Part shown: piece after piece, positions 15,001-24,000 of the stretch
Layout: each line of letters begins with the position of its first letter
How positions within the stretch are numbered: position 1 is the stretch's first letter
NCBI GenBank assembly: GCA_016297695.1
Contig: JAEDGC010000004.1
Coordinates: forward strand, 8,074-72,073
Length of the DNA stretch: 64,000 nt
DNA from: Bacilli bacterium
GTDB taxonomy: Bacteria > Bacillota_I > Bacilli_A > RF39 > UBA660
Reading direction: 5' to 3'
Made by a program: the position numbers

Positions 15001-18000
15001 AAGGAAGATGAAAATTATTTCTACTATTTAATTGATAATGGAAATTTGGTAGCTGGTTCAAAAGTATATAATATTGAATTTAATAATTTATATGATGGTA
15101 TTACTTATGAAATAATTGAAAGCAAAAATATATAAAAAGAAGGTTTTTATGAAAAAGTTAATGAATGAAATTTTATATTTAGCTAATCAAGGAGATTACG
15201 AAGAAATACTTGAAATTATAAAAAGTAGTGAATATAGAAATGACAAAAAAATATCTAATATAAAAAGAATAGTAGAAAGATATTTATATATAAGAGATAT
15301 TAGTCCATGTAATAGTACAGATAGGTTACCGGAATTAACAGATAATGTATGGGAAAACTATTTTAAATGTATTAGATTAAATAATTATGAAAAAGCTTAT
15401 GAAATAATACTTCAAATATTTCAAAGAAATCCAAATGAAGCTGCTCAGTTTTATTTAATTATTACAAAAGATATAAAACAACTTGTTGATATAAACGATA
15501 AAATGAAGAAAGAAATTGATAGTATAAATAATCAATTATTAGACTTATTAAATGAAAATAGAATTGTATATAATAATGATTTAGGTGATTTAGAGTTTTT
15601 ACTTGAAAGTAAAATATCTTTAGAAATAGAGGGCAACTTTGATTGTTATTTGGACAGTTTAACTTTAAATTTAATAAGAACAATTAAACAATTAAATAAT
15701 GAACCATTTATTAATAAAAAAATATTTGCTTCTTTTGATTATAATGGAAGTATGCTAGATAGGTTATATCAATCATTAGAAGTTGGAGATTATTTAAATT
15801 CATTAAAATATTTAAAATCTTCTAATGTTTATAGTGCTTTATCTAAAAAAAGTGATAAAGTTTATCCAGTTTTATTATATAAATTGTTAAAATTATTAGA
15901 ATATAATTGCAATAAAAAATTCTATAAAAATAATCATATTTCTATTGAATCAGACAGTATATCAAAATATGATAAATTGTCAAGCGAAATAGAAAATGAT
16001 AATTATTTAGAAGCCTTAAAAACTTCATTTGAAAATGAATATGAAAATGATTATTCAATGGATATAGTAAAAGTTTTAGCTTTAAGAAATGACAAGGAAT
16101 AAGTTCCTTGTTTTTTTACTGCTTTAATGTTAATATATTTGAAAATTATATTAATTTAAGATGAGGATTATATATATGAAGAAGTTATTGAAAAATTTAT
16201 AAAATTTGGTGTGGATTTGACTGAAGAAGAAATTTTAGAAAAAGTAATAGATTTTACGTTGATGAATATTTATTTGATTTAATAAGTGGTGATCCTAAGA
16301 AATTAATTTATCAAATAAAAAATAGATACAAAATTTACTGGGGGTTTTATAATGAAAAACATAGAACTTGAACAAAAGATAGAAGAAATATTAAGAAAAA
16401 GTGTATTAAAAAAAATCAATCCAATGAAAGACTCAAAATGGGTAGATTTAGAAAATGATTCTGTTTATCAATTATTAATGAAAAAAATGGGAATTGAAAT
16501 TTTTAATGAAATGTATATTGAAATAAAAGAAAATCAAAATAAATATAAAGAATATAAAAAAATTACAATGTTTTTAGATAAATTTTTGAAATATTATGCA
16601 AACAAATATGAAAAAAATATCGAAGATTTAAAGTTAACTTTTATTAATTATGGAAAAACAGAACTTGTTTATGTTTTAAGTGATAACAATAATAATAAAG
16701 TAACTTTGTTAGTTAAACAACCAGCAGTAAAATTTGGCGATATCTATGAAGAAATGCACAATTTAATGGTGTTAAAACAAAAAGATAATAATGTAATTGC
16801 ACCAATTGATTATTATTATATAAATAATCAAGAATTATATGTTACACCTTATATAAACCAAGCTAGGTGTGTAGCAAGTTATAATAATTGGGGAATGTAT
16901 ATTCCCGAACCATGGTATCGATTTGAGAGTTTTACATTTGAACAAGAACAAGTAGTAACAACATGTATGATTGCAAAGCTAGTAAGTTTGTATGACTTTG
17001 AAAAACAACAAGGGATAATAAATTGTAAACTAGGTGGAGGAGACTTTATGTTACCTAAAGGTTGGGAAAATGAAACTCCGACAATAGATAATACCCTTAA
17101 TAATTTATATTTAATAGCAGCTAGAAAGAAAATAAATTGTACATATGAAAAATATATAGAAATAATAAGAAGTGAGTTTTCTAGAACAACAATTAATGAA
17201 GATCAAACTAAATTAATTATTAACTTAAGAGGAAGAGTTCCAATGAACATTAATTGCATTGATGAAGGGATAAATCTTGGAAGAAAATTAATTGCTAAAA
17301 AATAATATTTAATAAAAGGTGAGTTTAATATGTTAAAATTTTATAGCCATAAAGGTAAAATCAGATATTATAATTTTAATGAATTAAAATGTTTTGACTA
17401 TGGAAATACGGCTAATATATACAAAATTGGTGAAAACATTTTCAAAAAATATTATGCTTATACAAGTGATAAATATAGATTAGATAAAGACACATTTGAT
17501 ATACTTAATTATATAAAAAGTAAAAATATGACTGAAATTTATGAACTACTATATGATGATGAAAATTTAGAAGAAGTAGGAGGATATATTTCTAAATATT
17601 ACGAAAGAAATCTTATTAATATTTTAAATCAAGATATTGACTATATACTTGATAATATGAATGATATTGAAAAACTATTTGATGAACTTTCAAAATATTT
17701 GATTCGAGTTGATGATGTTAAATATAAAAATACAATTTTGACAAAAGATAAAATTATTTTAATAGATCCTGATTCATATAAAAAAGTAATTTATAGTGAG
17801 GAATCATTAAAGAAAATTAATAAAAAAGCATTATTAGATTTATTTGAAAGTATTTATTTAAACTTTCTTCCTAAAAATGAAAGTTGTATAAAAATTTTTG
17901 ATTTGTTTGACATTAATATAGATGATAAAACTAATATAACTTATGAATTTAGTAAAAAATTATTAAAAAAATAAAATATGGTGGAGGGATTAATGAAGAA

Positions 18001-21000: not shown

Positions 21001-24000
21001 AATACAGTAGAAGCAATAGAAGTTCCAAATAAAAAGTTTGCAATCGGGGTAAAATGGCATCCTGAATTGATGCAAGGTGAAAATTGTATGGATGAAATTT
21101 TTAAAAAATTTATAGAAAGCTGTGAAACAAATTAACAATGAAATAATTATTTTGTTTTATAAATAAAAATAGTAAAGGGGACAGTTCTATGTCTCCTTGT
21201 TTTGTTAATAAATAAGTGATAAAATATGTTAATGAAAAACGTCTTTGATTATTTAATAAATTTGTGGCCTAGATTAGTTTCCTATGCGTATCCACAAAAA
21301 TTAGACCTATTTTATTAATGTTTGGACACGAATTTATTGATTATAGACACAAAATTTCTGGTTGATATGAGTCATAATAAGGAGGTCAATATGTTCAAAT
21401 TAGAGTCAAAATATAAACCAAGTGGAGACCAACCACAGGCTATTGAAAAGTTAGTTGAAGGAATTAAATCTGGTAAAAAAGACCAGGTTTTACTGGGAGC
21501 AACTGGAACAGGAAAGACTTTTACAATTGCAAATGTAATTGAGCAAGTTAATAGACCAACTCTTGTTTTAGCTCATAATAAAACACTAGCTGGGCAACTT
21601 TATTCTGAATTAAAAGAGTTATTTCCTAATAATCATGTCGAATACTTTGTATCTTATTATAGCAACACCCCAAAAACCCCTTTATTTAGTGCCTTTTAGT
21701 GTTATTTAATCATAGTAAAATACCTAAATAACACTAGATAAAACCAGAAGTTAGAAAATAAATTTGTGGCCGGTATTCGTGGTCATTCGTGTCCGCCTAA
21801 GAAGAACCTGTTCAAAATAATGAACTATCTGAATAATGTATATATTTTACTTTATTGAAAATGTATGCTAAAATAGCAATCAATTTAAGGGGGATTGTAT
21901 GCAAAAATCAAAATATACAATGCATGGTATAAACAAAGAAACATATAGATTATTATTCGATGAAAAAGAGCAAAATAAGATGGAATGCTCTAATGAAATT
22001 TTTACTATTGAAATGAGTTCATTATATGATAGAAAGCCGTATTATATATTCTATAACTTTTTAAAAAAGATAATTGATATGTATTTTTATGAAGTTAATT
22101 ATTTTAATTTACATAAGAAGATGTTTGGTAAAGGATACATATTTAAAAATAGTGATGTAGAGTTTTGGTTTGATTACTTAGAAAATCATTTAAAGAAAAT
22201 ATTAAGAAATGAAGATACTTATGTTAAGAAAGAAATGATTTTTGACTTAAAACATAATTTAAGATATTGTTCGTGTTTTTATACAAATATGATTATATCA
22301 GCTAATATAGAAAATTCTTTTTTTGTTACAGGTTTAATTAAATATGATGATGGTGATAGTCATTTACATAGTTTTGTTGAACATAAAGATTATGTTATTG
22401 ATTATACAAAAAATCTGATTATGCCTAAGAAAAAATATATTGAACTTCTAAAAATTAAAGAATTACAAAGGGTTGATTCTAAAAGTGTAATAAATATGTA
22501 TAATATTTTAGTAGAAAATAGAATATTAAATACTGCAAGATTTATGGCGACATTTGGAAATGAAATAATAAATGACTTAGATAGAAATCCTCAATTAATT
22601 AAAAGAAATACAGATAAGCCAGATTTTAGTTGTTTATTTTACTAAAATAACAAATAATATTAGCAAGGAAGTTATGATGACTTCCTTGTTTTATTGTAAA
22701 ATAAGTGTTAAAATAGGTTATTGAAAAACATCTGGTTTTATTCAGTTTTATTTAGTGTTATTTAATAAATTTGTGGCCGACATGTATCCACCAGAAATTA
22801 GACCTATTTTATTAATGTTTGGACACAAATTTTCTGGTTGATATGAGTCATAATAAGGAGGTCAATATGTTCAAATTAGAGTCAAAATATAAACCAAGTG
22901 GAGACCAACCACAGGCTATTGAAAAGTTAGTTGAAGGAATTAAATCTGGTAAAAAAGACCAGGTTTTACTGGGAGCAACTGGAACAGGAAAGACTTTTAC
23001 AATTGCAAATGTAATTGAGCAAGTTAATAGACCAACTCTTGTTTTAGCTCATAATAAAACACTAGCTGGGCAACTTTATTCTGAATTAAAAGAGTTATTT
23101 CCTAATAATCATGTCGAATACTTTGTATCTTATTATGATTATTATCAACCAGAAGCATATGTTCCCTCAAGTGATACTTATATAGAAAAAGATTCCTCTA
23201 TTAATGATGAAATAGACGAATTAAGGCATGCAGCAACATCTGCCTTAATTAATAATCGTGATACGATAGTTGTAGCATCTGTATCTTGTATTTATAATAT
23301 TGGTGAAAAAGAAGAATATGTTAATAAAATGCTTACTTTAGAAAAAGGAATGAAAATTAAAAGAAATGATATAATTAATAAACTTGTTGATATGGCATAT
23401 GAAAGAAATGATATTTATTTTCATCGTGGTACATTTAGAGTTCATGGAGATATTATTGATATAGTACCTGCTGGCGAAAAAAGTCAAGCAATAAGAGTTG
23501 ATTTATTTGATGATGAAATAGATAGAATATCAATCTTTGATCCAGTAACTGGAGCATTGATAAAAGAAAAGAAAACCATATCGATATTTCCAGCAAGTCA
23601 TTTTGTTACAAGTGATAAAAAGATGCAAGAAGCATTAAAAAGAATAAAATCTGAACTTGAAGAAAGAATAAAATACTTTGAAGATAATAATAAACTACTA
23701 GAAGCTCAAAGAATAAAAGAACGTACTAATTATGATATGGAAATGCTTAAAGAAACAGGTTTTTGTAGTGGAGTAGAAAATTATTCATCCCATTTAGCTT
23801 TGAGAGATTCAGGTTCTACACCTAATTGTTTAATAGATTTTTTTGATAAAGATTTCTTATTAATTATTGATGAATCACATGTTACTGTTCCACAAATAAG
23901 AGGAATGTACAATGGTGACAGAGCAAGAAAACAAACTTTAGTAGATTATGGATTTAGATTACCATCAGCTTTAGATAATCGACCTTTAAAATTTGAAGAA

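Follow-up and report, generated by a model that had tools for sequence, protein, structure and literature searches.

The DNA analysed here, called the window below, is a stretch of 64,000 nucleotides from a Bacilli bacterium (NCBI GenBank assembly GCA_016297695.1, contig JAEDGC010000004.1, positions 8,074 to 72,073 of the forward strand). It has about 25% G+C, and beyond 4 kb nearly all of its genes lie on the + strand. The subject of this study is an array of repeats and small gene modules (M1 to M4), which extends from about 16.1 to 23.1 kb and leads into the repair gene uvrB (Table 1). We read this array as a probable pile-up of remnants of integrative elements that entered uvrB.

The repeat consists of a hairpin and a T-rich tail, and four copies of it are clear, each with CCTTGTTTTRTTNNNAAATAARTGNTANAATA after the hairpin. 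A terminator scan gave nine terminator-like calls between 15.9 and 23.0 kb against 0.7 expected, among them all four clear hairpins and a further one at 16091. The 24-nt core of the tail is matched three times in the 64-kb window at up to three mismatches (0.00 expected). A second conserved block, AATAAATTTGTGGCC, is matched six times at up to two mismatches (0.41 expected), and these matches all lie within 19827-22778, five of them on the + strand and one inverted. Neither AATAAATTTGTGGCC nor the tail core has a copy elsewhere in the 64-kb window, outside 16.1-22.9 kb. Searching the window by tblastn with three full-length integrases of the family described below (P0132, P0148 and P0189) gave a best E-value of 0.37. 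The pattern scans and this search agree with the initial annotation, which had seen no repeat copy elsewhere in the 64 kb and no integrase in or next to the array. That annotation had counted five repeat copies, of which the four clear ones stand. The fifth, at 16091, is much weaker, with 72% identity to the copy at 21194 over 39 nt, where the common part is the hairpin and promoter geometry only; it is a plausible member. The extra segment that had been noticed in the long forms of the repeat was found again, with 71 nt and 89% identity between the copies at 19772 and 21702. The truncated uvrB copy was likewise recovered, as a match of 315 nt between 21346-21660 and 22822-23136 with a single mismatch at 21354, which covers the ribosome-binding site (RBS) and uvrB codons 1-90. 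Rfam models at the gathering threshold found nothing in the array, the sole match in the window being a tRNA (10283-10353). A look-up of the window UvrB by exact sequence returned no record.

The units of the array are intact nearest to uvrB and eroded further upstream, an order that fits repeated entry at the intact gene. The M4 unit (21661-23136) has 1476 bp, one gene, both ends intact and no integrase. In the unit of the glutamine amidotransferase (GATase) the right end (21175-21660) is complete and the left end is reduced to a stub, and M1 and M2 are represented only by hairpin and promoter remnants. The promoter tail of M1 is fused directly to the RBS of the 207-aa open reading frame (ORF207), so that a copy of the uvrB promoter now precedes cargo. 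The M2 leader appears to have been joined to the following left-end remnant by a deletion between TTATTTAAT repeats, with loss of the G motifs, the uvrB fragment and the junction. M3 had first been taken for one module; an overlooked left-end remnant lies inside it, and M3 is therefore two cassettes, M3a and M3b. The N-terminal and C-terminal pieces of the decayed M3a gene are 74% and 83% identical, respectively, to an intact 325-aa gene which stands behind a tail in a related locus (L012, 6977-7954). M3b encodes the only module protein with a family assignment (Pfam: PF07722, 1e-25; PF00117, 2.8e-18). The M1 proteins, earlier described as kinase-like, have no match in Pfam, NCBIfam, PHROG or PADLOC to support this, and no homologue in any fetched locus.

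Table 1. Features of the uvrB array in the window, from left to right (positions within the 64,000-nt stretch).
Feature	Position	Strand	Details
Leftmost diverged copy	16091-16136	+	Hairpin terminator of ORF 15116-16102, then TTGTTT 16108-16113, 17 nt, TAATAT 16131-16136
M1 cargo	16352-18957	+	Four co-oriented ORFs of 317, 214, 237 and 80 aa
M1 right-end remnant	18974-19023	+	Hairpin 18974-18994 and promoter tail (CCTTGTTTTRTTNNNAAATAARTGNTANAATA from 18992), ends after TGTTAGAATAA
M2 cargo	19046-19669	+	207-aa ORF (ORF207), no family match
M2 right-end remnant	19699-19780	+	Hairpin 19699-19723, tail from 19719, leader start TTTTATTTAAT 19770-19780
Left-end ('long form') remnant of next cassette	19781-19863	+	71 nt, 89% identical to intact left end 21702-21772; retains 3' hairpin arm 19794-19813, AAATTTGTGGTC 19830-19841, TGTGTCC 19857-19863
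M3a cargo	19917-20290	+	Decayed gene with frameshifts and internal deletion
Second left-end remnant, partial	20296-20341	+	Start of GATase cassette; AAATTTGTAGCC 20316-20327, CGTGTCC 20335-20341
M3b cargo	20449-21135	+	Class-I glutamine amidotransferase / peptidase C26, 228 aa
GATase cassette right end, complete non-coding part	21175-21390	+	Hairpin 21175-21198, tail from 21195, leader with AAATTTGTGGCC 21258-21269, GTATCC 21288-21293, inverted GGACACGAATTT 21324-21335, AGACACAAAATTT 21345-21357, RBS
uvrB' fragment, codons 1-90	21391-21660	+	Identical to uvrB 22867-23136; attL side of M4 junction; ORF runs past junction to stop at 21699
M4 left end, intact	21661-21794	+	Begins AGCAACACCCCAAAAACCCC; imperfect hairpin arms 21694-21710 and 21724-21743; three direct motif copies: AAATTTGTGGCC 21760-21771, CGTGGTC 21778-21784, CGTGTCC 21788-21794
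M4 cargo	21899-22645	+	248-aa ORF, no family match; own promoter-like site 21846-21874 (TTTACT, 17 nt, TAAAAT, with TG)
M4 right end, non-coding	22662-22866	+	Now uvrB control region; hairpin 22662-22690, CCTTGTTTTRTTNNNAAATAARTGNTANAATA from 22684; promoter-like -35 TTGTTT 22686-22691, 17-nt spacer ending TGT, -10 TAAAAT 22709-22714; leader with TTTAGT repeats, AAATTTGTGGCC 22767-22778, GTATCC 22784-22789, inverted GGACACAAATTT 22821-22832; RBS
Full-length uvrB	22867-24816	+	649 aa (tblastn and ORF list); putative crossover region TCTTATTAT 23128-23136

Scanning one genome per species for the exact tail pattern gave 31 loci from 28 species of metagenome-assembled genomes (MAGs); related loci are referred to by L numbers. 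The species are labelled as uncultured Bacilli, Tenericutes, Erysipelotrichaceae or Mycoplasmatota and are low-GC gut Bacilli, and the pattern had no match in viral contigs. In the 31 loci, every copy with a readable uvrB side precedes uvrB, a truncated uvrB or the left end of an element. The few loci without uvrB in view are those where the sequence ends soon after the match or enters cargo genes (L006, L012). In the complete genome OZ006981.1 (1.31 Mb) the pattern was matched once, upstream of uvrB. The gene 5' of the hairpin varies by species, and the cargo found in relatives includes major facilitator superfamily transporters, an ATP-grasp protein, an amidase, a short-chain dehydrogenase/reductase, a nucleoside deoxyribosyltransferase, RhuM, an HD protein and a radical S-adenosylmethionine (SAM) cluster.

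The hairpin stems vary between species yet stay paired by covarying changes, and the fold is found in 31 of the 33 distinct copies. The tail resembles a promoter, with a -35 box TTGTTT, a 17-nt spacer ending in TGn and a -10 box TAAAAT (TGnTAAAAT). The same geometry is seen again in subfamilies whose discovery did not depend on the search pattern, and because of this conservation and the match to the consensus we infer that the tail acts as the promoter of uvrB. Two distant species with an intact uvrB (L019, L031) have the hairpin and promoter directly before the uvrB RBS, with no leader, and so does the leftmost uvrB fragment of L034; this leader-less arrangement looks like the native state. 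The 16091 copy of the window shares the geometry of these native promoters, and may be a remnant of the host's own uvrB promoter region, hence the left limit of the array.

Short-read assemblies break at these loci. One example is the Logan assembly of SRR12268561 (L001, L002), the sample from which the window itself comes, which splits the window array into contigs of 11 kb and 1.2 kb ending in the repeat. Furthermore, the pattern is found on two separate contigs in three MAGs (L007/L014, L008/L033 and L016/L027). The arrays next to uvrB are probably under-assembled in MAG collections.

Truncated uvrB copies of about residues 1-90 are present in the window, L003 (two), L011 (two), L013, L025 and L026 (two). 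They all break after ...TTTGTWTCTTATTAT and go on with AG.AAC, where the intact gene continues with the conserved motif GATTATTATCAACC. The breakpoint is the same in L003, L011, L013, L025, L026, L034-L036, L040 and L042, and lies right after uvrB codon 90, following TCTTATTAT (codons 88-90). The hotspot that the initial annotation had placed upstream of uvrB is thus inside the gene. Behind each junction stands a left end of about 130 nt that is homologous between the copies; it has the AG.AAC... start, an imperfect hairpin, AAATTTGTGGCC and one or two copies of GTGKCC. The left end of the M4 type is kept in eight other loci with compensatory changes in the hairpin. The 'long form' of the repeat is this left end, and when the returning arm of the hairpin is left off, its sequence is that of the 'short form' in the uvrB leader. 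In the window, M4 is flanked by the 315-nt direct repeats at a precise junction, with the same breakpoint in nine or more other loci.

Behind the left end of L013 are genes for ParA, a ParB-like protein and a thioester-domain (TED) adhesin. A homologue search from this ParB-like protein together with contig look-ups led to intact elements. The ParB-linked element was found in several metagenomes and comprises ParA, ParB, a TED/SpaA adhesin, a sortase, SSB, a DUF3991/Toprim primase, HU, a NikA-like protein and a relaxase. It is always positioned behind a uvrB fragment of 88-114 aa, and is therefore an integrative conjugative element (ICE) in uvrB. One such element, with 99% identical ParB and an identical left end, stands behind four uvrB fragments (L013, L034, L035 and L036/L038). 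These fragments are 80-92% identical to each other and have different upstream contexts, and the boundary is at the same nucleotide in all four. Moreover, all four end in TCTTAGTAT, with G for T, where ordinary uvrB has TCTTATTAT, and a variable base lies seven positions further left. The marker base travels with the element, so strand exchange is placed in a stretch of about 7 nt (TCTTA) immediately 5' of the boundary.

The other end of the elements shows the corresponding pattern. From the hairpin to TATTATGATTATTATCAACC, a stretch of at least 505 nt, L017 and L018 do not differ at all (100% identity); immediately after it their sequences diverge, and the remainder of uvrB is about 73% identical between them. 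This is the pattern expected for the right attachment site (attR) of one element in two hosts, and it shows horizontal transfer of the right end. In L011 there are three copies of the uvrB 5' part which are 67-83% identical to each other, and one of them is 91% identical to the gene of another species.

The stranded UvrB(1-90) fragments (window 21391-21699; L003, L011, L013, L026) read in frame into a tail that recurs across species. This may be mere nucleotide conservation of the left end. The ICE-linked uvrB fragment has an in-frame TAG in place of the tail. It is conceivable that the fragments, which contain the ATP-binding motif and the recurrent SNTPKTLLF..F tail, are expressed and affect repair.

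A recombinase that co-occurs with the repeat had been proposed as something to look for, and relatives of the array do carry one. In L040 and L042-L045 the order is a uvrB fragment (92 aa), ParA/ParB/DUF5684 or lysin genes, an integrase, the control region and full-length uvrB. The integrase of these loci (Pfam: PF00589) has 300-344 aa and stands directly 5' of the uvrB control region, and L042-L044 contain two such elements in tandem. L046 has the same arrangement of integrase and control region and represents a third subfamily. In L034, a smaller element 5' of the ICE ends in a tyrosine-recombinase fragment directly before the hairpin, and 3' remnants of integrase genes are found just 5' of the hairpin in L013, L018, L026, L024, L016, L015 and L021. 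In 14 loci the genes adjoining the hairpin were inspected for an integrase, and all of them proved to be cargo. An integrase next to the attachment site is thus present in L040, L042-L045 and L046 and absent from the window, so the window units are derivatives of a family of integrase-bearing elements and not working members of it.

The integrases (300-377 aa) show a core-binding SAM-like domain and a catalytic domain only. They are distant from characterised ones, with at most 29% identity to phage integrases and a nearest PDB chain at E 4e-7. Besides these genes, L046 has in 5239-8927, 5' of uvrB, a PemK-family toxin gene and two tandem tyrosine integrase genes (400 aa and 308 aa), and frameshifts are present in the 5' part of its uvrB.

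The motif AAATTYGTGKCC is found in three direct copies in the left end, as a direct and then an inverted copy in the leader, and once in the 3' end of the integrase gene, where it was examined in two subfamilies (L034, L040). Depending on the subfamily it reads GGACACGAATTT, TGCAACGAATTT or TTACACGAATTT, and the copies change together at every position: every copy is AAGTTTGTGAC / TGCAACGAATTT in the L040 subfamily and GAATTCGTGTAA / TTACACGAATTT in the L046 subfamily. That the motif varies in step with the integrase subfamily points to protein-binding sites and suggests the motifs as candidate binding sites for the integrase or an accessory protein.

Taken together, we interpret the repeat as the right end of tyrosine-integrase elements that enter uvrB, and the window as a pile-up of their integrase-less remnants, with a probability of about 0.85. 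A complete element consists of the left end of about 130 nt with its hairpin and three motif copies, cargo, a tyrosine integrase, the terminator hairpin, a copy of the uvrB promoter, the leader, the RBS and codons 1-90. The circular element would be recombined into the chromosome by the integrase, no more than a few nucleotides away from TCTTATTAT, by which the host promoter and first 90 codons would be stranded as a dead fragment at the left attachment site (attL). The copy brought by the element would be joined to the rest of uvrB at attR, so that the repair gene stays intact. As the next element would again use the intact gene, newer units would be nearest to uvrB and older ones pushed upstream. 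For the window, at least five entries would be needed, after which all integrase genes and most internal junctions would have been deleted, partly between repeats. The sequences themselves show the architecture of the elements, the precise junction that they have in common, the horizontal spread of the right end between species and the link between integrase and hairpin; the promoter activity, the binding of proteins at the motifs, this order of events and any mobility at the present day are deduced. M4, with both ends intact and no integrase, would be the youngest unit, a cassette like a cis-mobilizable element (CIME). The strong conservation of the tail would be explained by a working promoter and probable sites for the recombinase or accessory protein, which are copied with every element. 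Of the 'functional uvrB' of the initial annotation, the full-length gene stands, but its promoter and first 90 codons would be supplied by the element, the first 270 nt (22867-23136) being part of the duplicated block. The proposal of a tandem accretion of small integrative elements at one hotspot, which was among the first readings of this array, is supported by the 28 species and the intact integrase-bearing relatives.

Several observations weigh against this interpretation. Neither an integrase nor a remnant of one is detectable in the window, so the history of this particular array is deduced from its relatives. No circular or empty-site junction was observed in assemblies, where the sequence of the junction in the circle (attP) equals that of attL. 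The copies at 16091 and 18974 have no attachment-site feature and are assigned by position and partial similarity. The integrases have no recognised arm-binding domain, which makes the label 'arm sites' for the motifs insecure. Moreover, the uvrB 5' copies of the window are identical over 306 nt while the adjoining leaders are only about 80% alike, and the identical right end of L018 and L021 stops 17 nt before the uvrB ATG (compared from -400 to +330). A simple integration does not predict the last two, and they call either for a second point of recombination or for further homologous exchange or gene conversion in the neighbourhood of the inverted motifs. A crossover at the inverted motifs 5' of the RBS could explain both breakpoints; as the main site it was rejected on account of the ICE in four hosts.

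The array might also have arisen with no site-specific recombination at all, from an ancestral duplication of the uvrB 5' part and subsequent homologous shuffling between the terminator-promoter units, similar to the promoter/stem-loop cassettes of T4-type phages, with spread between species by homologous exchange after DNA uptake. Several internal junctions of the window are indeed deletions between repeats, such as the tail fused to a left end at 19770-19781. The 306-nt perfect identity beside diverged leaders resembles gene conversion, and the breakpoint of L018/L021 lies outside the junction. However, one element behind four fragments of 80-92% identity, at the same nucleotide and with a marker base of its own, is not what shuffling would give, and three subfamilies have an integrase gene in physical linkage with the repeat, and motifs that covary with this integrase. 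The identity of L017 and L018 also stops at the junction. We consider this explanation unlikely for the array as a whole; homologous recombination probably contributes to the decay of the units and leaves their entry unexplained.

Still less probable is an integron-like platform, as the initial annotation had considered, in which a fixed recombinase captures promoterless cassettes through a folded attC-like site at an attI beside uvrB. The modules are small, single-gene and co-oriented and appear to enter at the end next to uvrB, a promoter copy stands upstream of each cargo gene, and the left end has a conserved imperfect hairpin, all of which recalls integrons. The repeat itself, however, is a terminator, promoter and leader in direct orientation, there is no imperfect palindrome of the attC type across the cassette boundary, and this boundary, TCTTATTAT, lies within the uvrB coding sequence. 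About 500 nt of the target are duplicated per unit, unlike in integron recombination. The window has no integrase and no fixed intI/attI platform, and in the relatives each element brings its own integrase at its end, repeated or decaying along the array. The idea that the repeat is a genome-wide dispersed element of the repetitive extragenic palindrome (REP), BOX or miniature inverted-repeat transposable element type, clustered here by chance, receives almost no credence from us. It would suit a short, AT-rich, intergenic sequence with a hairpin, but the window has no copy outside 16.1-22.9 kb, the uvrB-array context was found wherever readable in the 31 loci from 28 species, and the complete 1.31-Mb genome has its single match there too.

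Beyond the pile-up of remnants that we favour, the integrase-less single-gene units might form a working cassette system that has converged on the logic of integrons and is mobilised in trans by co-resident or visiting integrases. This is a speculative extension and on balance improbable, if less so than the alternatives above. If it were true, each unit would have retained a promoter and the attachment sequences at its two ends, uvrB would be a gene-capture platform of small-genome gut Bacilli, with cargo transcribed from duplicated promoters of a repair gene, and the left-end hairpin would be a recognition structure.

Some further candidates were rejected. A small ORF in the hairpin and tail, suggested by an ATG in several loops, has a different frame in different copies. 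An origin of replication (oriC) with DnaA boxes, suggested by TATCCACA-like motifs, was set aside, as the GC-skew switch lies near 4 kb and the motifs covary with the integrase subfamily. Tn7-like or other TGT...ACA ends (TGTGGCCGACA) were dismissed because of the target duplication of about 500 nt and because cargo is not enclosed between the inverted motifs. IS200/IS605-type hairpin ends, Xer/dif elements (integrative mobile elements exploiting Xer, IMEX) and group II introns do not fit the precise junction in a coding sequence and the duplicated 5' gene block.

The conserved left flank of the variable region (10482-16102) resembles a secreted-protein operon. It encodes a Zn-dependent phospholipase C (10482-11363; Pfam listing for L002), a faintly Peptidase_M73-like (camelysin/TasA-like) ORF, a cadherin-like protein (12207-13442) and an archaeal/SipW-type signal peptidase I (13522-14580). 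The families of the cadherin-like protein and the signal peptidase also flank the uvrB region in L003 and L021, and in L024 only the signal peptidase does. Within positions 1-4030 of the window the strand and the cumulative GC skew switch: genes up to 3803 are on the - strand, and those from 4031 onwards are on the + strand. The - strand side holds a 970-aa ORF with no Pfam match, and the + strand side opens with a phosphoketolase (4031-6409).

Another conjugative element is resident in the window outside uvrB, from 37560 to the end at 64000, and has the same backbone as the uvrB-integrated ICE of L013/L034. Its genes include ParA (38100-38930), ParB (38881-39816; 67% identical to P0001), a TED/SpaA adhesin (40754-44449), a sortase-sized ORF (44421-45059), a 2444-aa ORF (48667-56001), a DUF3991/Toprim primase (58176-59144) and a relaxase (60295-61635). 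A sigma-factor gene (36897-37559) precedes its left end, where the element has direct repeats of its own, CTGTTCATTCTGTTCAGTTACGTTCA, near 37612-37640. These end repeats are of the CTGTTCA type, unlike those of the array, and the right end and integrase lie beyond the window.

With these elements, uvrB becomes one of the few genes in which integrative elements target the 5' part and rebuild it. In a widespread uncultured lineage of small-genome gut bacteria, species exchange the uvrB promoter and the first 90 residues of this core repair protein as part of mobile DNA. Annotators of MAGs can recognise the hotspot by 'uvrB fragments', by stray calls of 'integrase, partial' and by contigs that break near uvrB. 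The site is useful for finding strain-variable cargo, such as RhuM, transporters, amidotransferases, radical SAM enzymes and whole conjugative elements. Furthermore, the defined attachment site and the integrases could become a genetic tool for organisms which currently have none.

In the literature we found no report of uvrB as an attachment site, the only match being an ICE between uvrB and secA in group B Streptococcus. We have thus not found uvrB described before as a target gene, and the type of structure, stacked remnants of elements, is already known. The initial annotation saw no match to a system known from Bacillota, but the array matches the accretion of ICEs, integrative and mobilizable elements and CIMEs described in streptococci, where an element integrates, decays to a remnant flanked by attachment sites, and the next element enters the site that carries the gene end (PMC5704250). 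The islands related to ICESt1/ICESt3 at the 3' end of fda in Streptococcus thermophilus (PMC5704250) show the same sequence of events and likewise form tandem, mostly decayed arrays. M4 (21661-23136) fits the definition of a CIME given there (PMC5704250), with a 248-aa ORF, no integrase, a left end at 21661-21794 and a right end at 22662-23136, whereas the older units of the window keep one end or partial ends only. In contrast to accretion of the ICESt1/ICESt3 type, the target here is neither a tRNA gene nor a 3' end but the 5' part of a gene, the duplicated block has about 500 nt and includes a promoter, and the hosts are uncultured small-genome gut Bacilli.

The array resembles integron arrays in its ordered, small, co-oriented and mostly single-gene units, in the entry at one end and in the promoter upstream of each cargo. 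Unlike integrons, it has neither intI/attI nor attC, the recombination point lies in a protein-coding gene, the target is duplicated, and each element originally had its own integrase. Replacement of the promoter and N-terminus of a gene by an integrating element is known from SXT in prfC and from the dusA-specific elements (PMC8409611). As in these, a tyrosine integrase inserts the element into the 5' coding part of a housekeeping gene, the element's own promoter and 5' sequence restore the gene, and the integrase is positioned at the end adjoining the restored gene. Compared with the dusA elements, for which about 35 replaced residues are reported, the elements described here replace 90 codons and a leader of about 150 nt, the target is uvrB, and the restoration of the gene is predicted from its sequence.

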